This document shows, in pieces, positions 23,563 through 44,602 of a DNA stretch of 64,000 bases. The notes beneath the pieces were generated by a model. That model was not told the origin of the DNA. It saw only the letters and a list, made by a program, of their open reading frames with translations, and searched no databases. The position numbers were made by a program, and so were the translations under genes. Origin of the DNA: Promethearchaeota archaeon (GTDB taxonomy: Archaea; Asgardarchaeota; Lokiarchaeia; Sigyniarchaeales; SOKP01); contig JAEOTS010000025.1 of NCBI GenBank assembly GCA_016839745.1, positions 1 through 64,000 of the forward strand, in the 5' to 3' direction. The first letter of the stretch is position 1. Each line of letters begins with the position of its first letter.

Positions 23563-24285
23563 TTGGATTTAATTACTACTTATTTAAGTTTTCCTTATGA
23601 AAAAATTGATGATGCGAATAGAATATTCATAGAAACAGTACAGAAAAATCTGATAGATCCTGATTTATTCGAAAAAAAACCCATACAACCAGTGATGATA
23701 TGGTATTCAGAAGATTATGTTATAATTACTTCTATACTTGAAGTGAAGGAAGGTAAGCTTAAAGAGGCTTTTAATTTTCTTGATATTAGAAAAAAGTGGT
23801 GGCCTCTAGAGGAAGGGTATAAAGTAGATGCTTGGGTGTCACCTCAAAGTGGAAAAACAAGGCCTACTTTTTTTGGAGAAAAGTATTTGATCTTTGTAAG
23901 CTACGCAACAAAAGATGCTCAAACCTTTAAAATTAATGAATTCGCCAAAAAATTAAAAGGCTTTCCAGAAATTAAGAAAGTTCTTTATTGGCAGGAACAT
24001 ATGCAGGATAACATCTTTAAGTTTATGAATGATAATCTAGGAAAATGTGACATAATGTTGTTATTTTGTTCAAAGAACGCGCTAAACTCCAAACCTGTTG
24101 AGAAGGAATGGACAGCAGCCGAAGCAATTGGTGTTCCAATTATTCCAATATTTATTGATACAGATCATATTCCTCCCCTTCTTAAATCAAGATTAGGTAT
24201 TGAATATGATATTAATGATATAGATAAAAATATTCGAGATTTGCGTACTTTAATCTTAAAAAAGATTAAAGGAGTATCAGACTAA
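23563..24285 (+). CDS. Soluble TIR-domain protein with a small N-terminal domain
   Basis: C-terminal TIR: IFVSYA, CDIMLLFCSKNALNSKPVEKEW, IIPIF; no TM segment. Confidence 0.85.
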   Translation: MDLITTYLSFPYEKIDDANRIFIETVQKNLIDPDLFEKKPIQPVMIWYSEDYVIITSILEVKEGKLKEAFNFLDIRKKWWPLEEGYKVDAWVSPQSGKTRPTFFGEKYLIFVSYATKDAQTFKINEFAKKLKGFPEIKKVLYWQEHMQDNIFKFMNDNLGKCDIMLLFCSKNALNSKPVEKEWTAAEAIGVPIIPIFIDTDHIPPLLKSRLGIEYDINDIDKNIRDLRTLILKKIKGVSD

Positions 24286-31570: not shown

Positions 31571-34500
31571 TTATTTAAAGAATTTGTTGCCTCTTGACCG
31601 CATAATCTCTTGATAAAGATTCTTGATAAAAATATTAAATTGTTTTTTATCATATTTAACATTCAAGAAGTGTCCTAATATGGTTGGAATGTCATCCAAT
31701 TTTTCATAAACAGGAATAATTGTAATTAAATCCTTTTTCCTTTTTTCGAATGCTACTTGCCATTCATCTTTTACAGAAGCTGATTTCATAGAATTTTCAC
31801 TACAAAATAACACAAATACATCATATTCTTTGAGCGTTTCATCCATAAATTCCGTATAATCTGCAACTTTTTGTGCTTTATCCGATTCCCAATACATTAC
31901 TTTATCAATCTCTGGGTATTCTTCTAAACTTTTTATAACACTTAAAATTTGGAAGTGATCAATATCCAGAGTAGAATAACTTATGAAAATATTAAGCTCT
32001 TTGAATTTCTCAGGCAATAATTTAGAAACTATAGCTTTTGGTTTTATTTCTTGAGAGCGAACTTCTTCTAATAGAAGGTCCGAATCATCCCTGTCAAGAT
32101 TTAGCATCTCCCATTCTCTATAAATTTTTATGAATTGTTTAATTTGTTCGATATTCGATTGTTTGTCAAAAGCAACTGCTTTCGATTTTGAAAAGTATTC
32201 ACCATTAATCTCATTATTTTGAATCATTTCTTGTAAGACTTCAATAATGAAATCATCATCACTTATTCCAGTTTGTTCACTAATGTCAGTTATTTCTAAT
32301 CTCGCAAATTTTGTAGCTAAATTTAAAACAATTCTTTTTATTATATTAATCATTTCTAAATGTTTACTATTACATTGAGTGATTTTTTCATCACATTCGT
32401 TTAACATTTCGAATAGACCATATACTTTGCATAAATCTTTGATTTCTTCAAGGTCTTTCAGTGCATCTTTTACACTTTTTTCCTCTATCAGATGATCAAC
32501 AGTTAACAACCTATTATGAAGTTTTTGTTCGATTTTAATTTTCTTTTTGTCATATACTTTTATTTCTCTTCCTTTTTTTGGAATAATTACTCTCTTCCGA
32601 ACAACTACGAAACTTACTCCAGCTATACTAATTATACTAACAACAGTCATAATGATTACAATTAAATAATCTGGTTTCGTTATTACAGTATTTCCTTGAA
32701 ATGTATTTCCAAAACTATCTTCCTCAACATAAGCTTCATCATTTAAGTAGAAATAATTTTCAGTTATTGAATTATTGTTAGATTGTTTAAAGAATAATCC
32801 GAATTGATTACTTCCTAGGAAACTTCCACTGATGATGTTACTGTGACTCAATAATAGATAAATACCCCAACGGTTATAACTTATTGTTTCTGTATTGTTT
32901 ATAATGGAAATCAAACGACTTTCATTCAAGAAAATACCCGCTAACTTATTATGGTTCATATTACTTTCTAATATCGTGATATTCTCACAATCGTATAAAC
33001 ATACTCCATGTCCATTATTATTCGAGCAATCCAGATTAATTAATATAGCATTAGAAACATGCTCTAATTTAAGTCCTGCATCATTAAATCCTCCACCTGA
33101 GTTATGTAAAATACTATATCTTACAATGAAAAACGCAATAGAATTTCTAATTATTAAATTACTTCCAGTATTCTGACCATCAATTACTAAAAATTCAATA
33201 ATATATGGATCATTCCAAGTGCCTGAACCAAAGCACCACTCTTGAGCTTCTGCTTGATCCCAAGTGTAATTACCTGCACCAGTATCGTCAATAGTAGTAG
33301 TTTCCAAAACAACATAATCTGGGACTTTTTTAATAGATACATTTTGATAGCCGATATTTCCTACCAAATCAGCAGCATAAAAATGAATAAAAATTGTTTC
33401 AATCGGACCAGTAATAAAATTATCCCAAAGCCCTTGATCTATCTTTCCTGTTAAATCTGAAAAAGTATAATTACCTGTTATATATGTATCGTTAGATAGG
33501 GAATACCATGTGAGATCTAAATTTCCCTCAGTGATAGAAAGATTAAATTCAGGACTACTTAGTTGAAATGTCTCGTCTAATATTGGATTATGAATTGTAA
33601 TCACTGGTATTTCGATATCTTTCCCAACCATTATATCCATAAAGCTTAAAGTCCCTAAAGTATTATTTGCGTAAAATCTTATTATTACTGTTCCGTTTCC
33701 TAGAGCATCCCATTCAGCCTGATCTATAGTACCATTAGCTATAAATGTAATATTTGTGAGTCCTCCATCAAGTGTATACCACATCGAATCTATGCCATTA
33801 ACATTAGATATTTCTACATTAAAAATCGGAGGATTGTACCTAAATAAACTATTAGTAATTGGTGTATTTATTAAAATGGTTGGACCTGATAAAATATCTT
33901 TCCTGACCACAATTGAATTGGAGGCTAGATTCCCTAGGGTGTCATTCCCATAGAAAGTGATTGTTACTGTTCCATTTACTTGAGCATCCCATTCTGTCTG
34001 GTCTATGGAGCCATTAGTTATAAATATAATATTTGTGAGCCCGCCATCAAGCGTATACCACATCGTGTCAATACCATTAATAGCAGTTATTATCACATTG
34101 AAATTTGGCGCAAGAATTCCAAAAAGTTCATTAAGAATTGGAGATATGATGAAGATGTTTGGCAATTGGATATCCTTCCTAACCACAACAGAATTAGAGG
34201 CTAAATTCCCAACGGTATCATTTGCATAGAAAGTTATAGTTACAGTACCATTTGCTTGATTATCCCATTCAATTGGATCTATGGTACCATTGATTGTAAA
34301 TGTAATATTTATGAACCCGCCATCAAGCGTGTACCACATCATATCCACACCATTGATATCCGAGATTTCTACATTAAAAGTGGGGGGGAGAGGTCCAAAG
34401 AGCTCATTTGGTATAGGTGAATTAATGGTAATATTCGGAATTTCGATATCTTTTCGAACTACTACGGAATTAGAAGCTATATTCCCTAAGGTATCGTTTG

Positions 34501-37500
34501 CGTAGAAAATTATGGTAACGGTTCCATTTGATAGAGCATCCCATTCTGTCTGATCAATTGTCCCATTAGTTATAAATGTAATATTGGTTATACCTCCATC
34601 AAGTGTATACCACATTGTATCTACAATATTAATAGCAGTTATTTCTACATTATAGTTCGGAGAAGTATACCCAAACAAGTTATTTGAAGCTGGAGTATTT
34701 ATTAAAATGGTTGGACCAGATAAAATATCTTTCCTAACTACTAAAGAATTGGAAGCTAGATTCCCTAGGGTGTCATTCCCATAGAAAGTGATGGTTACAG
34801 TTCCATTCCCTTGAGCATCCCATTCTGTCTGATCTATTGTTCCATTAGCTATAAATGTTATATTAGTTAAACCTCCATCAAGTGTATACCACATTGTATC
34901 TATTCCGTTGATATCCGAAATTTCCACAGTAAAATTTGGTGCAAGGGCTCCAAAGAGCTCGTTTGGAAGGGGGAAATTAATGATAATATTTGGTAATTCG
35001 ATATCCTTACGTACTACAACAGAACTAGAAGCTAAATTCCCAACGGTATCATTTGCATAGAATATGATGGTAAGAGTTCCATTTGATTGAGCATCCCATT
35101 CAGTCTGGTCTATGGTACCATTGGTTATAAATGTAACATTAGTTATACCTCCGTCAAGCGTATACCACATTGCACCTATTCCATTGATATCGGTAATTTC
35201 TACAGTAAAAGATGGCGCAAGAGATCCAAAGAGCTCATTTGGTAAAGGTGAAATAATGTTAATATTAGGAACTTCGATATCCTTCCGAACTACAACAGAA
35301 CTAGAGTCAAAATTTCCAATGGTATCATTAGCATAGAATGTGATGGTAACAGTCCCATTTGATTGAGCATCCCATTCTGTCTGATCAATGGTTCCATTGG
35401 TTATAAATGTAATATTCGTGAGCCCGCCATTAAGTGTATACCACATTGTATCTATTCCATTGATATCAGCAATTTCTACAGTAAAAGTTGGTGCAAGAGA
35501 TCCAAAGAGCTCATTTGGTAAAGGAGAAATAATAAAAATATTAGGAGCTTCGATATCCTTCCGAACTACAACAGAATTAAAGGCTAGATTTCCTAGGGTG
35601 TCATTCCCATAAAAAGTTATGGTTATGGTTCCATTCCCTTGAGCATCCCATTCGATCTGATCAATGTTCCCGTTAGCTATAAACGTGATATTTATGAGCC
35701 CGCCATCAAGTGTATACCACATCGTATCTATTCCGTTGATATCCGTAATTTCAACGTTAAAAGTTGGTGCGATAACTCCAAAGAGCTCATTAGGAAGAGG
35801 TGAATTTATGATAATATCTGGCAATTCGATATCTTTCCTAACAATTACAGAATTAGAAGCTAAATTCCCAATAGTATCATTTGCATAGAAATTGATCGTA
35901 ACGGTACCATTTACCCGATTATCCCATTCTGTCTGATCAATGGTCCCATTGGTTATAAATGTAATATTCGTGAGCCCGCCATCAAGTGTATACCACATTG
36001 TATCTATTCCATTGATATCCGAAATTTCTACTGAAAAAATTGGCGCCAGGGATCCAAAGAGCTCATTAGGAAGAGGTGAATTTATGAAAATATCTGGCAA
36101 TTCGATATCTTTCCTAACAATTACAGAATTAGAAGCTAAATTCCCAACGGTATCATTTGCATAGAATGTGATGGTAACAGTTCCATTTGATTGAGCATCC
36201 CATTCAGTCTGGTCTATAGTACCATTGGTTATAAATGTAATATTCGTGAGCCCGCCATCAAGTGTATACCACATTGTATCTATTCCGTTGATATCGGTAA
36301 TTTCCACAGTAAAGGTTGGTGCAAGAGATCCAAAAAGCTCATTTGGTAAAGGAGAAATAATAAAAATATTAGGAAGTTCGATATCTTTCAGAATTACAAC
36401 AGAATTAAAGGCTAGATTTCCTATGGTATCATTCGCATAAAAATTTATAGTTAGGGTGCCATTTCCTTGAGCATCCCATTCAGTCTGGTATATAGTACCA
36501 TTGGTTATAAATGTAATATTCGTGAGCCCGCCATCAAGTGTATACCACATTGTATCTATTCCGTTGATATCCGTTATTTCAACATTAAAAGTTGGTGCAA
36601 TAACTCCAAAGAGCTCATTTGGAAGAGGTGAATTTATGATAATATTTGGTAGTTCGATATCTTTCCTAACTGCTACTGAATTAAAGGCTAGGTTTCCAAT
36701 AGTATCATTTGCATAGAAAGTGATCGTAACGGTACCATTTACCCGATTATCCCATTCTGTCTGATCAATGGTTCCATTAGCAATAAATGTAATATTTGTG
36801 AGGCCTCCATCGAGTGTATACCACATCATATCTATTCCATTGATATCCGAAATTTCTACATCAAACGATGGCGCAAGAGACCCAAAGAGCTCATTTAGTA
36901 AAGGTGAATTAATATTTATATCTGGTATTTCGACGTCCTTCCGAACTACAACAGAATTAGAAGCTAAATTCCCAACGGTATCATTTGTATAGAAAATGAC
37001 GGTAATCGTTCCATTTACTTGATTATCCCATTCAATTTGGTCTATGGTACCATTGGTTATAAATGTAATATTAGTTAAACCTCCGTCAAGCGTGTACCAC
37101 ATTACATCTATTCCGTTGATATCAGTAATTTCCACAATATAAGTTGGCGTTAGGACTCCGAAAAGTTCATTTGATAAAGGAGAAATAATAATAATATCTG
37201 GCGCTACGATATCTTTCCTAACTAAAACAGCAGCAGAGGCCAGCTTTCCAAGTGTACCATTCACATAGAAAGTAATTAATACTGTTCCATTTGCTAATTT
37301 ATTCCATTCAATCTGATCAATAGTCCCATTAGCTATAAATGTAATATTTGTGAGACCACCATCAAGCGTATACCACATTGTATCTACGCCATCTGTATCG
37401 TTTATTTCTACATTAAAATTTGGAGAAGTGATCCCAAATAAACTGTTTGAAATCGGCGCATTTATTACAACAGTTGGAACCGATTCAATTCCATCATCCC

Positions 37501-40500
37501 ATATTGGAAAATTATCTTGACTTCCTGCGGTACCAGGTATTAAATATGGACTATCTCCTATTCCATCATCATTTGCATCTACTCCTCCATAATCATCCCA
37601 ATAATTACCAATAGTTCCATTATCCCAATCATTATTCGTTCCATTATCGAGTGCGTTGATACCATTTCCTATAATTAAATTATTAAAAATTAAAGAATAA
37701 TTAGCTTCTGTTAAAAAAAATCCATAATTAATAGTATTATTTATGGTGTTTCCCGAAATAACATTATCAATATTTTCGAATAAATATATTCCATAGAGGT
37801 CATAGTTATTTACTATATTATTCGAGATTATGTTACTACTACTATTAAGAAGTATTCCTATCCCAAAACCAGTTGGAAACCAGTTGGAATTAATGGTGTT
37901 TCCTGTAATACTGTTATTATTACTATACAATGAAACTATCCCAAAGTTGTTACTATTTAAGGTGTTTCCTGTAATGTTATTATTATTACACTCGCTTATC
38001 CATATACCATAATAGTTTCCTGAAATCGAGTTGTTTCCTGAAATTGAGTTATTTACACTCCTTCCCAGGTATATCCCACGAGAATTATTTGAACAATTGT
38101 TTCTTGTAGATAGTGAATTAGTAACATTAACCAATTCAATCCCCGCTCTTGTTGAATTGAATACAGTACAATTTTCAATTCTAAAATATACATCAGAATT
38201 TTCAATGTAAATACAACTAACCGAATTGTTTTGAGCATTAATTGCTAAATCTTCTATTACATAAGGATCCGAACTTGTACCCTGTCCAGTACACTTTCCT
38301 GCATCTTTAAAATATTGCCACTCTTGATTACCCTCTAAATAAATAGTCTGTGGAGCTATTGCACTGTCCTGTGTCACATCATAAAAGCTTAATATCCCCA
38401 ACGCATTCGATTGAAATCCAAGAATATGACTTCGATAGGCGTCATAATTATACGGAATACAACCATATGCCCATGGCATATCATCTTCAACTAAAAGTTG
38501 TTGGATTCTTTCGTAAAATACTTTCCTTGCATTTGGATCAGTTTCGAATAATGCTGCTTCCATTAAAAGCTGCACATTGGCCCAAGGATCAAATGGATCT
38601 CTACCCGCTCCCATTGCTGCTGTATAACCATTATATTGAACTCCATTATATGCGATAGATCTATTAGTGAAATGTGGGTTGATATAATTGCTTGGATCAA
38701 CATAATCAGGACCCCATCCCATCCAAAAGAGTTCCAGCATATTTCTTGTATAGGGAGGAATTTCAACCAATCTATAAAAATAATCCGTCCAGGTCATGCC
38801 CTCATCAGTAACTTCGATTCCTATTTTATCAAGATTATTTTGCAATAAAGGTAAAATATTTTCGCGAAGGGTGTTACCTATATTATAAGTATAATTGAAA
38901 GTGCGGAATGATGCGGCAGACCATAGAGCCTCATCCATTCCGGGGTAATTTGCGTCCCATCCTATTCCAAAGCCCATACTTTGCATGATTTCTCTAGCTT
39001 GTGTTATGTTGTATATTGCAACATCAAAGGACCAATTGGCGTAGGGCATATTTTCAGGTATAGGCGACTTTAATCTTACGGCATTTCCTCCATATAATTC
39101 ATCAATAATGTAAGAGTAGTTTATTGCATACGAAATTGCTTTTCGCCATGTATTATTAATAATTTGATTATTCATACCGAGATATTGAACAATCATGCTT
39201 TGTCCAGCGTTAAATAACGTAATATCGGGATCAGCATCAAAAGTTGAAAACATTGAAGTCAATGGATCAACCAGTAAGTCAACTTCACCTGATAACAGTG
39301 CGTTATTTCTGTCTACTGCATCTGGAATAATGGAAAATTTAAGGATGGAAACATTGGCTTTTCCTGCCCAGTAATTCTCAAAAGCGTGAAACTTTACTTC
39401 ATTATCAGGTAAATAATGATCATAAACAAACGGACCTGTCCCTATTAAATCACCTGTAGTGGTATTAATAGCTGCAAATTGAGGTGTAGATATAGGAGAT
39501 AGAATATATGAACCAGGAAAGCACAATAAATTATCAAATACACCATAAGGTTTATTCAACTCGAATCTAATTGTATATTCATCTACAATTACAGTATCGT
39601 TAATAATAGGAAAATACATACTAACATCAGGATCATAATATTGATAAAGTTCAGCCGCATAAGCCATAGTATTATTTATGAAGTATGCTAACCTATCAAA
39701 AGAAAATTTTACTGCAGTCGCGTTAAATTTAGTTCCATCGTGGAAAATTACATTAGACCTGAGAGAAACAGTGTACCATGTGTCTGTGGAATTGATCATC
39801 CATGTACCCATTGATGTTGCAAGATTTGGTATAACTGGTAAATTAGGATCCGATATTTTATATTTAAATAAACCCTCACACACTTGATATATTACATCAA
39901 ATGATACTGTATCATAAGCAACGTGAGGATCAAGATCAAATGGACCATAAGCAGTACCAAAAACAATTTTAAATATATCATCTCCTTGGTCGATCCCATC
40001 ATCCCAAATTGGAAAGTTATCTTGACTTACTGTTGGGCCAGATATTGGATAAGATGTATCCCCCATTCCGTCATCATTTTCATCTACTCCTGGATAATCA
40101 TCCCAAAAATTACCAAGACTTCCATTATCCCATGAATTGCTAATCAAACTTTCAAAAGCATTGATATTATTTGAGATAAATGAATTGTTATAAATTAGAA
40201 TGCTATTACTATTATTTACATTCATTCCATATTGAACATTATTATTTACATTATTACCAGTGATGGTAAAGTTGGTATTAAGATTGAATAGATGTATCCC
40301 TACGCCGTTATTTGAACAATTGTTCCCAATTATTTGTCCATTACTAGCATTTAGCAATTTAATTCCTGCATCTGCAGAATTAAATAATGTACAATTTTCA
40401 ATTCTAAAATATACCTCAGAATTTTCAATAAAAATACAACTAACAGATTCATTTTGGCCATCGATTACTAAATCTTCGATTACATAAGGATCAGAAATTG

Positions 40501-42430
40501 TGCCCTCTCCCGTGCATTTACTTGCGTTTTTAAAATATTGCCATTCTTGATTACCATCTAAATATATCGTTTGTGGGGCAATCGCACTATTTTGGGTAAC
40601 ACCACGAAAATCTAAAATTTCCATAGCGTTCGATTGAAATCCAAGAATACGGCTCCGATAGGCATCATAATTGCGCGTGACGAAACAAAATGCCCATGGC
40701 ATATCTTCTTCTACAAGAATTTCTTGAATCCTATTGTAATATGATTCTCTTATATTTTGATTGGTTTCGAATAATGCTGCTTCCATTAAAAGTTGTACAT
40801 TATCCCATAGATTAAACGGATCTCTACCAGATTCTATCGCTGCCCAATAGCCATTATACATACCATTATTCCAACTACTAAGATCAAGTGTTCTATTGGT
40901 TAACATACTATTGATATAATTACTTGGGTCATTATAGTCATGCCCCCAACCCATCCAGAAGAGTTGCAGCATCTTCCAGCCATCCACTCCTAAAATAAAC
41001 AATCTATCTAGATATTCTGACCAGGTCATACCAGCATCAGTAACTTCGATACCAATTTTATCAAGATTATTTTGTAATAAAGGTAAAATATCTTCTCGAA
41101 ATGAGTTGCCTATATTATAGGTATAATTGTAAGTCTCGAATGATGCGGCAGACCATAGAGCCTCATCACTTCCGGGATAAGTTGTATCCCAAGCTACTCC
41201 AAAACCCATACTTTGCATTATTTCTCTTGCTTTAGAAACATTATATGTTGCTACATCAAGCGACCAGTTAGCGAATATTATACTTTCAGGAAGAGGAGAC
41301 TCTAATCTCAGTGCGTTTCCTTCACGTAATTCATTAAGAATATAAGAATAGTTAATAGCATAAGAAATTGCGTTTCTAAAAGTAACATTGATATAATAAT
41401 TACTCATTACAAGAGGCGAAATTACTGTCCCCTGTCCAGCGTCAATTAACGTAATATCAGGATCAGCATCAAGAGTAGAAAACATTGAGGAATATGGATT
41501 AAGTATTAAGTCGACTTCACCTGATAACAATGCGTTGTTTCTGTCTACTGCATCTGGAATAATGGAAAATTTAAGGATTGTAATATTTGCTTTTCCTGCC
41601 CAATAATTCTCAAAAGCGTGAAATTTTACTTCATCATCGGGTATATAATGGTCATAAACAAACGGCCCTGTACCGACTAGAGTTCCAGTAGTGATATTAA
41701 TATACTCAAATTGAGGTGTAGATGTGGGAGATAAAATATATGATCCAGGAAAGCATAATAATGCCTCGAATGGTCCATATGGCTTATTCAACTCGAATCT
41801 AATTGTATATTCATCGATAATAACAGTGTCACTAATAATAGGGAAAGTAGTTCCGAGATCAGGATCAAAATATTCATAAAGTGTAGCTGCGGTAGCCATA
41901 GAATTATTTATAAAATATTTTAACCTTTCAAAAGTAAATTTTACTGCTGTTGCGTTAAATTTAGTTCCATCGTGAAAAATCACATTAGGTCGAAGGGACA
42001 CGGTATACCATGTGTCTGTAGAATTAATCATCCATGTACCTTTTGATGTTGCTAAACGGGGTATAATCTGTAAATTTTGATCGGTTAAATTGTATGTGAA
42101 TAAACCTTCGCAAACTTGATCTATCACATTATATGAATTAGAATCCCAAGAGTTTTGAGGATCAAGATCATATGGACCAGCCTGAGTACCAAATACTAAC
42201 TTAAATATATTATTATCTTGATTACTAGAGTTGAGATCTTTATCGTAAGAAATTAGTCCCTCTCTAGTTTTAGCATTTATATTTATATTCGAATTTATTA
42301 TGAAATTTGAAAAAAATATAATTAAGAGGAAAAATAAAATTAAAACTCGTTTTAATTTCTTATTGAATTTTATTGAATATGATTTACCTTTTATATTCCT
42401 ATATAGACGAATATTGACTTTGGATTTCAT
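31571..42430 (-). CDS. Giant membrane TIR receptor: 2x[SBP family 5 + beta-helix], 15 Ig-like repeats, beta-helix, TM, PCI-like winged helix, TIR
   Basis: N-terminal hydrophobic segment; SBP_5 motifs (LDP, FHDGTKFNA, GTGPF, W..DY.DP) twice; NosD/CASH-type N-rich coils; 92-aa repeats; TM at ~32600-32670; TIR IFISYS...DVFVLFCSENS..S..VKDEW. Confidence 0.9.
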   Translation of the reverse strand: MKSKVNIRLYRNIKGKSYSIKFNKKLKRVLILFFLLIIFFSNFIINSNININAKTREGLISYDKDLNSSNQDNNIFKLVFGTQAGPYDLDPQNSWDSNSYNVIDQVCEGLFTYNLTDQNLQIIPRLATSKGTWMINSTDTWYTVSLRPNVIFHDGTKFNATAVKFTFERLKYFINNSMATAATLYEYFDPDLGTTFPIISDTVIIDEYTIRFELNKPYGPFEALLCFPGSYILSPTSTPQFEYINITTGTLVGTGPFVYDHYIPDDEVKFHAFENYWAGKANITILKFSIIPDAVDRNNALLSGEVDLILNPYSSMFSTLDADPDITLIDAGQGTVISPLVMSNYYINVTFRNAISYAINYSYILNELREGNALRLESPLPESIIFANWSLDVATYNVSKAREIMQSMGFGVAWDTTYPGSDEALWSAASFETYNYTYNIGNSFREDILPLLQNNLDKIGIEVTDAGMTWSEYLDRLFILGVDGWKMLQLFWMGWGHDYNDPSNYINSMLTNRTLDLSSWNNGMYNGYWAAIESGRDPFNLWDNVQLLMEAALFETNQNIRESYYNRIQEILVEEDMPWAFCFVTRNYDAYRSRILGFQSNAMEILDFRGVTQNSAIAPQTIYLDGNQEWQYFKNASKCTGEGTISDPYVIEDLVIDGQNESVSCIFIENSEVYFRIENCTLFNSADAGIKLLNASNGQIIGNNCSNNGVGIHLFNLNTNFTITGNNVNNNVQYGMNVNNSNSILIYNNSFISNNINAFESLISNSWDNGSLGNFWDDYPGVDENDDGMGDTSYPISGPTVSQDNFPIWDDGIDQGDDIFKIVFGTAYGPFDLDPHVAYDTVSFDVIYQVCEGLFKYKISDPNLPVIPNLATSMGTWMINSTDTWYTVSLRSNVIFHDGTKFNATAVKFSFDRLAYFINNTMAYAAELYQYYDPDVSMYFPIINDTVIVDEYTIRFELNKPYGVFDNLLCFPGSYILSPISTPQFAAINTTTGDLIGTGPFVYDHYLPDNEVKFHAFENYWAGKANVSILKFSIIPDAVDRNNALLSGEVDLLVDPLTSMFSTFDADPDITLFNAGQSMIVQYLGMNNQIINNTWRKAISYAINYSYIIDELYGGNAVRLKSPIPENMPYANWSFDVAIYNITQAREIMQSMGFGIGWDANYPGMDEALWSAASFRTFNYTYNIGNTLRENILPLLQNNLDKIGIEVTDEGMTWTDYFYRLVEIPPYTRNMLELFWMGWGPDYVDPSNYINPHFTNRSIAYNGVQYNGYTAAMGAGRDPFDPWANVQLLMEAALFETDPNARKVFYERIQQLLVEDDMPWAYGCIPYNYDAYRSHILGFQSNALGILSFYDVTQDSAIAPQTIYLEGNQEWQYFKDAGKCTGQGTSSDPYVIEDLAINAQNNSVSCIYIENSDVYFRIENCTVFNSTRAGIELVNVTNSLSTRNNCSNNSRGIYLGRSVNNSISGNNSISGNYYGIWISECNNNNITGNTLNSNNFGIVSLYSNNNSITGNTINSNWFPTGFGIGILLNSSSNIISNNIVNNYDLYGIYLFENIDNVISGNTINNTINYGFFLTEANYSLIFNNLIIGNGINALDNGTNNDWDNGTIGNYWDDYGGVDANDDGIGDSPYLIPGTAGSQDNFPIWDDGIESVPTVVINAPISNSLFGITSPNFNVEINDTDGVDTMWYTLDGGLTNITFIANGTIDQIEWNKLANGTVLITFYVNGTLGKLASAAVLVRKDIVAPDIIIISPLSNELFGVLTPTYIVEITDINGIDVMWYTLDGGLTNITFITNGTIDQIEWDNQVNGTITVIFYTNDTVGNLASNSVVVRKDVEIPDININSPLLNELFGSLAPSFDVEISDINGIDMMWYTLDGGLTNITFIANGTIDQTEWDNRVNGTVTITFYANDTIGNLAFNSVAVRKDIELPNIIINSPLPNELFGVIAPTFNVEITDINGIDTMWYTLDGGLTNITFITNGTIYQTEWDAQGNGTLTINFYANDTIGNLAFNSVVILKDIELPNIFIISPLPNELFGSLAPTFTVEITDINGIDTMWYTLDGGLTNITFITNGTIDQTEWDAQSNGTVTITFYANDTVGNLASNSVIVRKDIELPDIFINSPLPNELFGSLAPIFSVEISDINGIDTMWYTLDGGLTNITFITNGTIDQTEWDNRVNGTVTINFYANDTIGNLASNSVIVRKDIELPDIIINSPLPNELFGVIAPTFNVEITDINGIDTMWYTLDGGLINITFIANGNIDQIEWDAQGNGTITITFYGNDTLGNLAFNSVVVRKDIEAPNIFIISPLPNELFGSLAPTFTVEIADINGIDTMWYTLNGGLTNITFITNGTIDQTEWDAQSNGTVTITFYANDTIGNFDSSSVVVRKDIEVPNINIISPLPNELFGSLAPSFTVEITDINGIGAMWYTLDGGITNVTFITNGTIDQTEWDAQSNGTLTIIFYANDTVGNLASSSVVVRKDIELPNIIINFPLPNELFGALAPNFTVEISDINGIDTMWYTLDGGLTNITFIANGTIDQTEWDAQGNGTVTITFYGNDTLGNLASNSLVVRKDILSGPTILINTPASNNLFGYTSPNYNVEITAINIVDTMWYTLDGGITNITFITNGTIDQTEWDALSNGTVTIIFYANDTLGNIASNSVVVRKDIEIPNITINSPIPNELFGPLPPTFNVEISDINGVDMMWYTLDGGFINITFTINGTIDPIEWDNQANGTVTITFYANDTVGNLASNSVVVRKDIQLPNIFIISPILNELFGILAPNFNVIITAINGIDTMWYTLDGGLTNIIFITNGSIDQTEWDAQVNGTVTITFYGNDTLGNLASNSIVVRKDILSGPTILINTPITNSLFRYNPPIFNVEISNVNGIDSMWYTLDGGLTNITFIANGTIDQAEWDALGNGTVIIRFYANNTLGTLSFMDIMVGKDIEIPVITIHNPILDETFQLSSPEFNLSITEGNLDLTWYSLSNDTYITGNYTFSDLTGKIDQGLWDNFITGPIETIFIHFYAADLVGNIGYQNVSIKKVPDYVVLETTTIDDTGAGNYTWDQAEAQEWCFGSGTWNDPYIIEFLVIDGQNTGSNLIIRNSIAFFIVRYSILHNSGGGFNDAGLKLEHVSNAILINLDCSNNNGHGVCLYDCENITILESNMNHNKLAGIFLNESRLISIINNTETISYNRWGIYLLLSHSNIISGSFLGSNQFGLFFKQSNNNSITENYFYLNDEAYVEEDSFGNTFQGNTVITKPDYLIVIIMTVVSIISIAGVSFVVVRKRVIIPKKGREIKVYDKKKIKIEQKLHNRLLTVDHLIEEKSVKDALKDLEEIKDLCKVYGLFEMLNECDEKITQCNSKHLEMINIIKRIVLNLATKFARLEITDISEQTGISDDDFIIEVLQEMIQNNEINGEYFSKSKAVAFDKQSNIEQIKQFIKIYREWEMLNLDRDDSDLLLEEVRSQEIKPKAIVSKLLPEKFKELNIFISYSTLDIDHFQILSVIKSLEEYPEIDKVMYWESDKAQKVADYTEFMDETLKEYDVFVLFCSENSMKSASVKDEWQVAFEKRKKDLITIIPVYEKLDDIPTILGHFLNVKYDKKQFNIFIKNLYQEIMRSRGNKFFK
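33325..37477 (-). repeat. Intragenic tandem array: 14 conserved + 1 divergent ~276-bp units encoding Ig-like domains
   Basis: Unit P.I.I.SP..NELFG...MWYTLDGGLTNITF..NGTIDQ.EWD...NGTV.I.FYANDT.GN....V.V.KD; the 276-nt period also shows in antisense ORFs at 35112/35388/35664/35940. Confidence 0.95.
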
Positions 42431-42643: not shown

Positions 42644-44521
42644 TTAAGCGATTATCTCGGGAATTCTTCTGCCCTTTGAGCGCATAATCTCCTGATAAAG
42701 TTCGGTGGTAAAACTATTAAAATCAGTTTTATCATATTTAACATTTAAAAAGTGACCTAATATTACTGGAATGTGTTCGGCTTGTTCATAAACTGGAATA
42801 ATTGTAACTAATCCCTTTTTCCTTCTCTGGAATGCTGCTTGCCACTCATCTCTTACAGAAACGGATTTCATGGAGTTTTCACTACAAAATAAAACAAACA
42901 CATCGCAATTTTCAAGCATTTTATCCATATATTCTACAATATTTTGTGTACTATCCGCCTCCCAATACATTACTTTGTTAATATCTGGGTATTCTTCTAA
43001 ACTTTTTGCAACTCGTGATATCTGAAAATGATCTGTATCTATAGTGGAATAACTTAAAAAGACATTAAGATCTTTGAATTCATCAGGTTTAGACTTAGAA
43101 ATTATTGCTTTCGATCTTAATTCCCGAGGTAGAATCTCTTCTATTAGAAAGTCCGAATCATCCCTATCAAGGTTATTTTTCTCCCATTCTCCGTACGTTT
43201 TTATGAGGTTCTCAATTTGTTCGATATTCGATTGTTGATCAAAATTAATTCTTTTTGAAAAGTATTCAGCATATACCTCATTATTTTGAATCATATCTTC
43301 TATAACTTCAATAATGAAATCTTCATCATTTATTCCAGTTTTTTCACTAATATCAGTTATTTCTAATCTCGCAAATTTAGTAGCTAAATTTATCACAATT
43401 CTTTTAATTATATTAATCATCTCTAAGTACAAATAATTACAATGTTCAATTTTTTCATCACAATCGTTTATCATTTCAAATAGACCATATACGTTGCATA
43501 AATCCTTAATCTCTTCCAGATTTTTGAGAGCCTCTTTTACATTTTTTTCCCTTATCAAGTAGTCAATAAAGGATAACCTATCATGAAGATTTTCTTCGAC
43601 TTTAATTTTTGTTTTTCCGTCTACTTTCACTTCTCCTCTTTTTTTAGGAATAATTACTCTCTTCCAAATAGTTAGGATACTTACAGCGGATACACCAACT
43701 ATAATAACGATAATTATAATGGTTAAAAGTAATACATTAAATTTCGGTATTATTTCATTATTTTTAAAACTATTATTTTGACTATCTTCAAGATCATAAG
43801 CTTCATTATTTTCCATAAAGATATTTTCAATTATAGAATTATTGCTCGATTGCTTAAGAAATAATCCTAATTGATTATATCCTATAAAGTTTCCACTGAT
43901 GTTGTTATTATGACTCATTAAGAGAAAAATACCCCTTACCTTATTATTGTTCAGATCACTTTCTAATATAGAAATATTCTGAGAGTTATCCAAACAAACC
44001 CCATGGTCTTTGTTGTTTGAGCAATCTATATTAATTAATTTACCATTTGAAACATTTACTAATTTAACTCCCGCATCATTAGCTCCTCCACCAGAATTAT
44101 AGAAAATACTATCTCTTATAATGAAAAACACACTAGAATTTCTAATTATTAAACAACTTGCACCATTCTGACCATCAATTTCTAAGGATTCAATAATATA
44201 AGGATCATTCCAAGTACCAGAGCCATTACACCATTCTTGAGCTTGTGCTTGAGTCCAAGTGTAATCTCCTTCTCCAGTATCGTCAATAATCATCGATTCT
44301 GAAATATAATTATCTGATACTTTAATAATAGAAACATCTTGAGATCCAATATCCTTATTATATGGCAATTGATTGAGTCTAATTGTGAAAATTAAGCAGA
44401 ATAATACCAAGATGAAAAATAGTAATGAAACTCTCTTTAAAGTTAAATTTTTATTTGAATTAATTGAAACTGAATTTTTACTTTTATCCTTAGAGACACT
44501 AGCATTAACTTTAGATTTCAT
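42644..44521 (-). CDS. Short membrane TIR receptor paralog: beta-helix, TM, PCI-like winged helix, TIR
   Basis: Shares the MKSKVN start (ATG 44521 preferred over 44563), the last beta-helix, TM and cytoplasmic region with 31571-42430; TIR VFLSYS...SVRDEW. Confidence 0.9.
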   Translation of the reverse strand: MKSKVNASVSKDKSKNSVSINSNKNLTLKRVSLLFFILVLFCLIFTIRLNQLPYNKDIGSQDVSIIKVSDNYISESMIIDDTGEGDYTWTQAQAQEWCNGSGTWNDPYIIESLEIDGQNGASCLIIRNSSVFFIIRDSIFYNSGGGANDAGVKLVNVSNGKLINIDCSNNKDHGVCLDNSQNISILESDLNNNKVRGIFLLMSHNNNISGNFIGYNQLGLFLKQSSNNSIIENIFMENNEAYDLEDSQNNSFKNNEIIPKFNVLLLTIIIIVIIVGVSAVSILTIWKRVIIPKKRGEVKVDGKTKIKVEENLHDRLSFIDYLIREKNVKEALKNLEEIKDLCNVYGLFEMINDCDEKIEHCNYLYLEMINIIKRIVINLATKFARLEITDISEKTGINDEDFIIEVIEDMIQNNEVYAEYFSKRINFDQQSNIEQIENLIKTYGEWEKNNLDRDDSDFLIEEILPRELRSKAIISKSKPDEFKDLNVFLSYSTIDTDHFQISRVAKSLEEYPDINKVMYWEADSTQNIVEYMDKMLENCDVFVLFCSENSMKSVSVRDEWQAAFQRRKKGLVTIIPVYEQAEHIPVILGHFLNVKYDKTDFNSFTTELYQEIMRSKGRRIPEIIA

Positions 44522-44602
44522 TTTATCAAATTTGGTATTTGTGATAAAGGGATTAAAATCCAAGAAATCTTTTAAAATCGATATACAAAGTTGTATATTG
44601 AT

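Follow-up and report, generated by a model that had tools for sequence, protein, structure and literature searches.

The window discussed here is the whole stretch of 64,000 nucleotides at positions 1 to 64,000 (forward strand) of contig JAEOTS010000025.1, assembly GCA_016839745.1, from a Promethearchaeota archaeon. It has a G+C content of about 30%, its DNA is found in marine sediment metagenomes, and the relatives that we refer to below carry the names Promethearchaeota, Lokiarchaeota or Hodarchaeota archaeon. Our subject is one reverse-strand gene, which encodes a giant membrane protein with two complete transporter-type peptide-binding domains at its outer end and an intracellular TIR domain at its C-terminus. 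The binding domains belong to family 5 of the substrate-binding proteins (SBPs) and will be called SBP5 domains, or heads. From the N-terminus the order is a signal segment, two units each made of an SBP5 domain and a parallel beta-helix, an Ig-like stalk, a third beta-helix, a transmembrane (TM) helix, a PCI-like part and a TIR_2 domain. The features are as follows, with residue numbers in amino acids (aa) and AF2 standing for AlphaFold2.

31571-42430, reverse strand: the whole gene, 3619 aa, a single open reading frame (ORF) without stops (ORF list, translation, Pfam)
42281-42346, reverse strand: hydrophobic segment near the N-terminus, aa 29-50, either a signal peptide or a signal anchor that stays uncleaved (translation; a crude hydropathy scan finds a counterpart in orthologues)
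39977-42211, reverse strand: unit 1, aa 74-818
40511-42211, reverse strand: SBP5 domain 1, of the type that we call d1, aa 74-640 (Pfam, genome search, PDB search, AF2, Foldseek)
40937-40939, reverse strand: codon for Asp498, in WGHD, which aligns with DppA Asp408
39977-40510, reverse strand: NosD-like parallel beta-helix 1, aa 641-818 (Pfam NosD at aa 650-781)
37475-39976, reverse strand: unit 2, aa 819-1652
38288-39976, reverse strand: SBP5 domain 2, of the d2 type, aa 819-1381 (Pfam at aa 866-1257, PDB search)
37475-38287, reverse strand: NosD-like beta-helix 2, aa 1382-1652 (NCBIfam NosD_copper_fam at aa 1419-1629, unit alignment)
33325-37474, reverse strand: Ig-like stalk, about 14-16 repeats of 92 aa with a 276-bp period
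32669-33178, reverse strand: juxtamembrane beta-helix 3, about aa 3085-3254 (Pfam Beta_helix at aa 3119-3259)
32603-32671, reverse strand: single TM helix, about aa 3253-3276 (hydropathy scan; a helix in the AF2 model of the tail)
32168-32551, reverse strand: cytoplasmic helical bundle and winged helix, PCI-like, about aa 3294-3421 (weak Pfam PCI, AF2)
31574-31996, reverse strand: C-terminal TIR_2 domain, aa 3479-3619 (Pfam at aa 3481-3591, alignment, Foldseek)

Pfam assigns two stretches of the 3619-aa protein to SBP_bac_5, four to NosD or Beta_helix and one to TIR_2, and matches PCI weakly. The SBP_bac_5 (PF00496) score of 443.6 bits over both stretches lies far above the gathering cut-off of 32.4 and places the heads in that family; in a profile search of the genome they score 241 and 220 bits individually, and a PDB sequence search with SBP5 domain 1 finds DppA and HbpA at E values of 1e-30 to 1e-33. 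The NCBIfam matches to NikA, DppA, GsiB and SapA are all below threshold, and the domains are thus of family 5 without being equivalogs of any named transporter protein. Beta-helix 1 ends in the motif GDxxY...QDNFPIWDDG and is modelled by AF2 with high confidence, packed after the SBP5 domain. In the stalk Tandem Repeats Finder reports 13.6 copies of a 276-bp repeat at 33690-37434 with 78% matches, more diverged Ig-like copies can be read from the translation at the membrane-proximal end, and Pfam has a Big_7 match in the corresponding region of the orthologue P0122.

With regard to the two units, which together occupy aa 74-1652 (37475-42211, reverse strand), the original prediction had been that the distal ectodomain is a duplicated segment of about 2.2-2.5 kb, and this is borne out by the two SBP_bac_5 matches and by alignment of the units, all within one ORF. 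They share 68.6-69% protein identity over 690-739 aa and 77.5% DNA identity over 1.9 kb, and differ in length (2.2 and 2.5 kb) because unit 2 has about 90 extra beta-helix residues. Contigs of two sequencing runs, both belonging to a single study and one possibly the source of the DNA, span the junction between them without differences, and P0122, an independent metagenome protein of 3673 aa with 77% identity, likewise has the two-unit architecture, the stalk and the TIR domain; the duplication is therefore no assembly artefact. In runs X5 and X8 the contig cover was patchy and did not bridge the junction. X8 is a marine sediment run from a different study, in which contig pieces of unit 1 (39972-42380) show differences of roughly 2-8%, so a close variant of the receptor exists elsewhere.

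The duplication does not look recent. Between the units dS is 0.79 and dN/dS 0.26, and the two do not come out as sisters in a tree built from 109 SBP5 domains. There P0002, a shorter protein of the form SBP5-beta-helix-TM-PCI-TIR, is grouped with unit 2 (support 98), and both units fall with P0002, the sister-species orthologue and P0028 into one clade (support 99). Unit 1 is 78% identical to unit 1 of P0122 and 87% identical to P0010, both of the d1 type, while unit 2 is 82% identical to unit 2 of P0122 and 80% identical to P0002, of the d2 type. On these comparisons the units are old, separately conserved orthologous module types.

The sister-species receptor, L036, has 1877 aa with one SBP5 unit and about four Ig repeats. 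Directly upstream of it is a gene 79% identical to, and orthologous with, the upstream paralogue of our gene, which is as follows.

42644-44563, reverse strand: paralogue of 639 aa with beta-helix, TM helix, PCI-like part and TIR_2 but without SBP5 domain or stalk (Pfam)

Measured against L036, dS is about 0.30 for both the cytoplasmic tail (31574-32602) and this small paralogue, and 0.71-0.77 for the SBP5 and beta-helix units (37475-42211, compared with L036:5981-13731), and the heads therefore look older than their chassis. Ectodomain cassettes have probably been exchanged between paralogous receptor genes, rather than a unit having been recently duplicated in place.

Both clamps are complete. 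We took as near-invariant 77 columns, each with a conservation of 90% or more across 58 relatives, and unit 1 retains 75 of these and unit 2 76. In a HMMER alignment to E. coli DppA (1dpe) Asp1242 of unit 2, in WGPD, stands opposite DppA Asp408, and in the family alignment Asp498 of unit 1, in WGHD, falls in the same column. About 103 of the 112 domains of the family have Asp at this place, those that are Opp-linked among them. In DppA it is Asp408 that forms the salt bridge with the charged N-terminus of a bound dipeptide (PMC3295651). Unit 1 was the unit modelled, with pLDDT 93.2 and pTM 0.88, and in Foldseek the model matches DppA, HbpA/GbpA, YliB, NikA/NikZ and OppA at E values of about 1e-37. 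The target-normalised TM-scores are highest for unliganded structures (YliB 0.90, apo DppA 0.82, apo NikZ 0.82) and lower for liganded ones (DppA with Gly-Leu 0.73, NikZ with Ni-His 0.75). As far as prediction can tell unit 1 is thus a normal open two-lobed clamp with a cleft between the lobes, closest to apo DppA, YliB and NikZ. Collapsed pockets with no ligand binding had been named in advance as an observation that would refute the sensor proposal, and the model of unit 1 shows a complete open fold instead.

The heads are also under purifying selection, with dN/dS of 0.23-0.26 for TIR-linked heads and 0.21-0.26 for stand-alone and anchor-only pairs. Faster evolution of the TIR-linked heads was considered and rejected, as their dN/dS is like that of stand-alone and anchor-only relatives. 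A separate observation concerns one branch of TIR-linked relatives, in which the ligand Asp is replaced by Pro in P0018 and by Cys in P0022, with the DPSNY motif that follows also decayed in both, and is not kept in P0143, where there is a 2-residue alignment gap just before it. Canonical peptide binding may have been lost in this branch.

The state of the clamps bears on the proposal that the protein is a structural or adhesive fibre, a long glycosylated filament for syntrophic cell-cell contact or for a coat, with SBP5 and beta-helix domains serving as its building blocks and no role for the binding of ligands. The great length of the protein, the dense N-x-S/T sequons along its translation, and Ig-like and beta-helix repeats typical of archaeal surface proteins would all fit a fibre, as would the apparent lack of an S-layer in cultured relatives (PMC11284389). 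However nearly all of the family-invariant SBP5 positions and the ligand Asp are kept in both units, with the open cleft complete, and this favours a retained binding function over a mere scaffold. Of the explanations that we discuss we hold the fibre to be the most doubtful, with only a slender chance of being right.

The two heads had also been proposed to differ at likely pocket positions, on the basis of three motif pairs. All three are present, QNSWDSNS (aa 92) with HVAYDTVS (aa 836), VISPLVMS (aa 336) with IVQYLGMN (aa 1080) and WGHDY (aa 495) with WGPDY (aa 1239), and the question is which of them distinguish the types. Columns that differ between the units are mostly variable in the family as a whole, with mean entropy 2.07 against 1.37 for identical columns. 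The N-terminal loop that holds QNSWDSNS and HVAYDTVS varies among orthologues, and we reject this pair as type-defining. The WGHDY and WGPDY pair adjoins the ligand Asp, and the residue two before the Asp corresponds in the alignment to Ser430 of GbpA, which contacts the ligand, but unit 1 of the orthologue P0122 has WLPDF and this pair too was rejected. The equivalent of DppA Arg355, Glu in unit 1 and Arg in unit 2, was tried as a marker of specificity and set aside, because the column is variable and mostly Ala, in Opp-linked sequences also.

What stands is the pair VISPLVMS and IVQYLGMN. All d1-type sequences have (S/Y)PL(V/Q)MSN, whereas QYL(G)MNN stands at this place in unit 2, in the other TIR-linked heads and in every Opp-linked relative. 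In SBP5 domain 1 SPLVMSN (aa 338-344) has replaced the family motif QYLGMNN, and there is an insert of three residues, DLS (aa 516-518), common to d1 types only; both are derived, and they are the only type-specific differences. SBP5 domain 2 retains the family consensus. In the AF2 model the VISPLVMS motif sits in the long crossover strand between the lobes, and it may shape the pocket floor or the hinge. That the clamps are of two distinct conserved types is supported by these alignments, and we infer that the heads may have different ligand specificities.

In the case of a link to transport, no Opp/Dpp permease or ATPase gene had been seen next to the receptor, and a profile search extends this to the whole contig, on which there is no BPD_transp_1 or oligo_HPY (Opp-type ATPase) match. 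The heads are not encoded with an OppBCDF-type permease and ATPase, as members of the SBP_bac_5 family that serve in transport would be, although they might be used by one in trans. The genome has three Opp-type loci, on contigs C2, C43 and C130, the last two with an SBP5 gene nearby. The oppBCDF operon on C2 (G000:C2:26000-32531) has no SBP gene and runs towards the contig end, and an SBP5 gene cut at the end of contig C127 (G000:C127:30327-31291) may belong to it. The contigs C127 and C2 may be neighbours. The Opp-type ATPase ORFs on C130 (988 aa, L002:6094-9060) and C43 (647 aa, L001:4849-6792) have long N-terminal extensions, with ABC_tran starting at about aa 659 and about aa 292 respectively.

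The heads are only 25-37% identical to the Opp-associated SBPs of their own genome. Their closest stand-alone relatives, at about 50% identity, belong to SBP-oppBCDF operons, and stand-alone SBP5 proteins with 42-53% identity to the heads are encoded directly upstream of oppBCDF at L044, L050, L051 and L052. In the phylogeny against transport-linked SBP5 proteins, which had been proposed as a check, the TIR-linked clade (support 97) lies beside a stand-alone clade, with weaker support (83), and this stand-alone clade includes P0086, from a Promethearchaeota metagenome-assembled genome, which is in an operon of the form SBP-SBP-x-oppB-oppC-oppD-oppF. As the closest stand-alone relatives are Opp-linked, the heads have been recruited from genuine transporter binding proteins. 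We also observed, in several genera, a gene pair directly upstream of the SBP5 gene of the opp operon, for a multi-pass membrane protein of about 845 aa and a membrane protein of about 316 aa, at these loci.

L044:1597-5106, gene pair upstream of opp
L049:5517-9035, gene pair upstream of opp
L050:5172-8686, gene pair upstream of opp
L051:5338-8846, gene pair upstream of opp
L056:3135-6641, gene pair upstream of opp
L059:1175-4680, gene pair upstream of opp

At a threshold of E <= 1e-60 the subfamily to which the heads belong was found in 24 of 40 genomes of the family to which the window belongs and in 3 of 3 of the sister family, and in none of 157 other genomes sampled from the phylum. With P0002 as query the ESM Atlas yielded nothing beyond generic SBP5 clusters of archaea. 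Large surface proteins of the subfamily use SBP5 as a general module, in many cases together with beta-helix and Ig-like spacers, and those with cytoplasmic domains are in the minority. TIR_2 tails are nevertheless found in P0122, P0002, P0018, P0022, P0100, P0132, P0143, L036 and L037, zinc-ribbon tails in P0031 and P0043, and other tails also occur. P0100, an SBP5-TM-TIR protein without beta-helix, falls in a separate clade from the main TIR-linked clade, and the fusion of SBP5 to TIR has therefore arisen at least twice. The chassis can also carry a second SBP class beside SBP5, or no SBP: P0132 (2016 aa, an NCBI metagenome protein) has SBP_bac_5, a NosD beta-helix and Peripla_BP_6 (LivJ type), followed by one TM helix and TIR_2, and the 639-aa neighbour, P0147, P0151 and P0152 are the same chassis without any SBP.

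Other relatives are giants with several SBP5 domains in tandem and an anchor only, with four in P0123-P0127, three in P0130 and P0131 and two in L038, L039 and L040. They resemble our protein in subfamily, tandem arrangement, spacers and C-terminal TM helix, but end 6-14 residues past that helix, where the window protein has a tail of 343 aa with the PCI-like part and TIR. At L040:952-11488 (G109:C48) three adjacent genes for proteins of 710, 1588 and 1115 aa carry between them four SBP5 domains. Each has beta-helix or Ig-like spacers, or both, and an anchor-only C-terminus, and with no permease nearby they form a local surface SBP array.

These arrays give substance to another explanation, that the window protein too is a surface capture array, whose heads scavenge peptides at the cell surface or pass them in trans to Opp permeases, the TIR tail being an unrelated add-on for, for example, localisation or turnover. 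Anchor-only tandem arrays of two, three and four SBP5 domains are common among the relatives, there are three Opp permease and ATPase sets in the genome for such heads to serve, and their dN/dS equals that of stand-alone SBPs. The lineage feeds on peptides, and in its member P. syntrophicum the protein that ranks first in both abundance and glycosylation is an SBP5 protein (PMC11284389). However the low identity of the heads to the Opp-associated SBPs of the genome, where each Opp locus has or may have an SBP of its own, does not suggest that they serve those permeases, and about 15 Ig-like domains and two beta-helices would put them far from any permease unless the N-terminal segment is anchored. 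The repeated fusion of TIR, zinc-ribbon and other tails to SBP5 ectodomains is also left without explanation. We consider capture alone unlikely, while giving it a substantial share of the probability.

At the output end the Glu-Trp of VKDEW is invariant in 16 of 16 aligned tails. The AF2 model of the tail (pLDDT 70.8) has the TM helix, a helical bundle, a winged helix, a disordered linker and a TIR fold, and the best Foldseek matches are the TIR domains of SPARTA, MyD88, SARM1 and Hydra TRR-2, with weak matches of the PCI-like part to COP9 signalosome subunits (TM about 0.15). TIR NADases such as SARM1, SPARTA and the plant TNLs are switched on by oligomerisation. With regard to Thoeris-type and other known TIR defence systems, PADLOC gave only weak ThsB-like matches for the tail (E 1.6e-4) and no match to an effector model among six proteins (the tail, the paralogue, a soluble TIR protein and three nearby ORFs). 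The soluble protein has a TIR_2 domain and 240 aa, is encoded at 23563-24285 on the forward strand, 7 kb from the receptor, and has a weak PADLOC bSEFIR match (E 0.0018). Other TIR proteins checked in the genome are cytoplasmic TPR-TIR or WD40-TIR proteins.

A TIR domain of this kind raises the question of defence. It has to be considered that the heads are a decoy or guard, mimicking the abundant surface SBP, to which viruses or other cells might attach, so that multivalent binding of a virion or a foreign surface clusters the receptor and fires the TIR NADase, leading to abortive infection or an alarm. Descent of the heads from a transporter SBP clade, the resemblance of the TIR domain to NADases activated by oligomerisation and the retention of some TIR-linked heads in spite of the lost ligand Asp are consistent with a decoy, and in a cultured relative the dominant surface glycoprotein is an SBP5 protein (PMC11284389). 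The ectodomain also changes fast in make-up, as seen from the higher dS of the SBP units than of the chassis and from the sister species with its one unit and few Ig repeats. However the proposal is speculative, as SBPs are not known to be used by any virus of the lineage, the surroundings are not those of a defence island and the ThsB-like matches are weak, and a dN/dS of 0.25 gives no sign of an arms race on the heads. We regard it as improbable, if slightly less so than the fibre.

The reading to which we incline, tentatively and at somewhat less than an even chance, is a one-component membrane receptor whose two SBP5 units are functional heads that bind ligands and feed no permease. This is the core of the original prediction, that the SBP5 domains act as sensors for a TIR output, and the parts of it that hold up well are the intact clamps with their ligand Asp and purifying selection, the absence of a transporter beside them, their covalent connection to TM helix and TIR, and the existence of two distinct types. 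The repeated origin of SBP5-TM-TIR fusions, and the second SBP class on the chassis of P0132, also speak for a coupling that is not random. It fares less well on the long stalk and the anchor-only relatives. Modules for nutrient capture thus seem to have found a second use, as heads of a receptor with the shape of a Toll-like receptor.

In such a receptor the heads, coming from the binding proteins of Opp importers of the same archaeal lineage, would most likely still bind peptides or peptide-like ligands, with unit 2 as the canonical clamp and unit 1 as a conserved derived type with an altered crossover strand between the lobes. They would form the N-terminal part of a giant single-pass surface glycoprotein, with the PCI-like part and an enzyme-type TIR domain inside the cell. 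From the end of SBP5 domain 2 at aa 1381 to the TM helix at aa 3253 there are about 1870 residues, made up of two beta-helices and about 15 Ig-like repeats, so it is unlikely that closure of a clamp is passed on allosterically. The trigger may rather be ligand-dependent clustering of receptors that brings TIR domains together, and we prefer clustering by a multivalent or surface-bound ligand because it fits the architecture and because TIR enzymes are activated by oligomerisation.

A number of points weigh against this sensor reading. It is not obvious how a conformational signal would travel along the stalk, and receptors are not clustered by small peptides alone. Arrays of two to four tandem SBP5 domains mostly have nothing inside the cell beyond their short tail, and must do something at the surface without an output domain. 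The ligand Asp is lost in the TIR-linked P0018, P0022 and P0143. Two of the three motif pairs fell away as markers of the types, and the third lies in the crossover strand and not at a proven contact residue. The match of the tail to ThsB-like proteins is weak, and apart from the pair of paralogue and receptor no flanking gene is conserved with the sister species and no downstream partner was seen. If the N-terminal segment is uncleaved, unit 1 would lie at the membrane and could have a permease within reach; the heads would then be distal in sequence only, which bears on all of the readings.

A more specific form of the sensor reading is a receptor of the pattern-recognition type, in which the Opp-derived heads bind a multivalent peptide-bearing target, cluster and switch on the TIR NADase. 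Targets might be bacterial cell-wall stem peptides on the surface of a partner or prey, or a virus that attaches to the surface SBP present in such abundance. Transporter parts would then have given rise independently to the logic of a Toll-like receptor, with exchangeable cassettes (d1, d2, Peripla_BP_6) on one chassis. This version we consider distinctly unlikely, though somewhat less so than the decoy.

It is useful to compare the protein with known systems. The heads resemble the OppA/DppA cluster C SBPs (E. coli DppA, 1DPP/1DPE; P0086; P. syntrophicum DSAG12_03090) in Pfam family, two-lobed fold and the Asp that binds the N-terminus, but those are free or simply tethered beside a permease, whereas here two copies are inside a 3619-aa protein with TM helix and TIR. 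GlnPQ-type importers have two tandem substrate-binding domains of different specificity fused to a permease. Our protein is like them in having two non-identical tandem clamps, but it has a single TM helix and no BPD_transp_1 match, and is no permease fusion.

Both bacteria and eukaryotes are known to have turned binding proteins of ABC importers into sensor domains. BvgS, the ionotropic glutamate receptors (iGluRs), the class C G-protein-coupled receptors (GPCRs) and the ANF receptors use SBP folds in this way, and BvgS has two SBP_bac_3 clamps in tandem. As in these receptors, SBP-fold clamps are fused here to a membrane-spanning signalling protein in one polypeptide, and as in BvgS they are in tandem. 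However their clamps are directly above the membrane and the output is a kinase, channel or GPCR, whereas in our case the clamps are of family 5, the output is TIR and the membrane is about 1870 residues away, so the close coupling of clamp and membrane is absent. SBP5 proteins are known to signal non-covalently, as in DppA-Tap, AibA-TlpB and CBP-ChiS (PMC8050422). These are alike in the use of family 5 for sensing, but there the SBP is a separate docking protein and here it is part of the receptor chain. In the searchable literature, where we looked for membrane TIR receptors of Asgard and other archaea with solute-binding ectodomains, we found no description of a family 5 SBP fused through one TM helix to TIR.

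The overall plan is like that of the animal Toll-like and IL-1 receptors and Hydra TRR, with an ectodomain, one TM helix, a cytoplasmic TIR domain and Ig-like domains outside, the topology here being predicted. It differs in that Pfam finds no leucine-rich repeats, the Ig-like repeats form a uniform stalk and the recognition module is an SBP. The TIR domain keeps the Glu of the NADase type and is closest to the prokaryotic SPARTA TIR, and the likeness in plan does not establish common descent with Toll-like and IL-1 receptors. No MyD88-like adaptor is known. No adaptor-like gene is conserved beside the receptor, which refers to the flanks, as adaptors elsewhere in the genome were not searched for.

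The architecture occurs in the archaeal lineage closest to eukaryotes, with the overall layout of Toll-like and IL-1 receptors, and has real interest for the question of how transmembrane TIR signalling evolved. The heads can be expressed separately, so that their specificity is directly testable. If the heads only scavenge peptides, the protein would still show how the cell surface is furnished in an archaeon that feeds on peptides and has no S-layer. If the heads sense and the TIR domain fires, it would offer a simple and testable model for how transmembrane TIR signalling can be built, and would show the shuffling of sensor cassettes between receptors.

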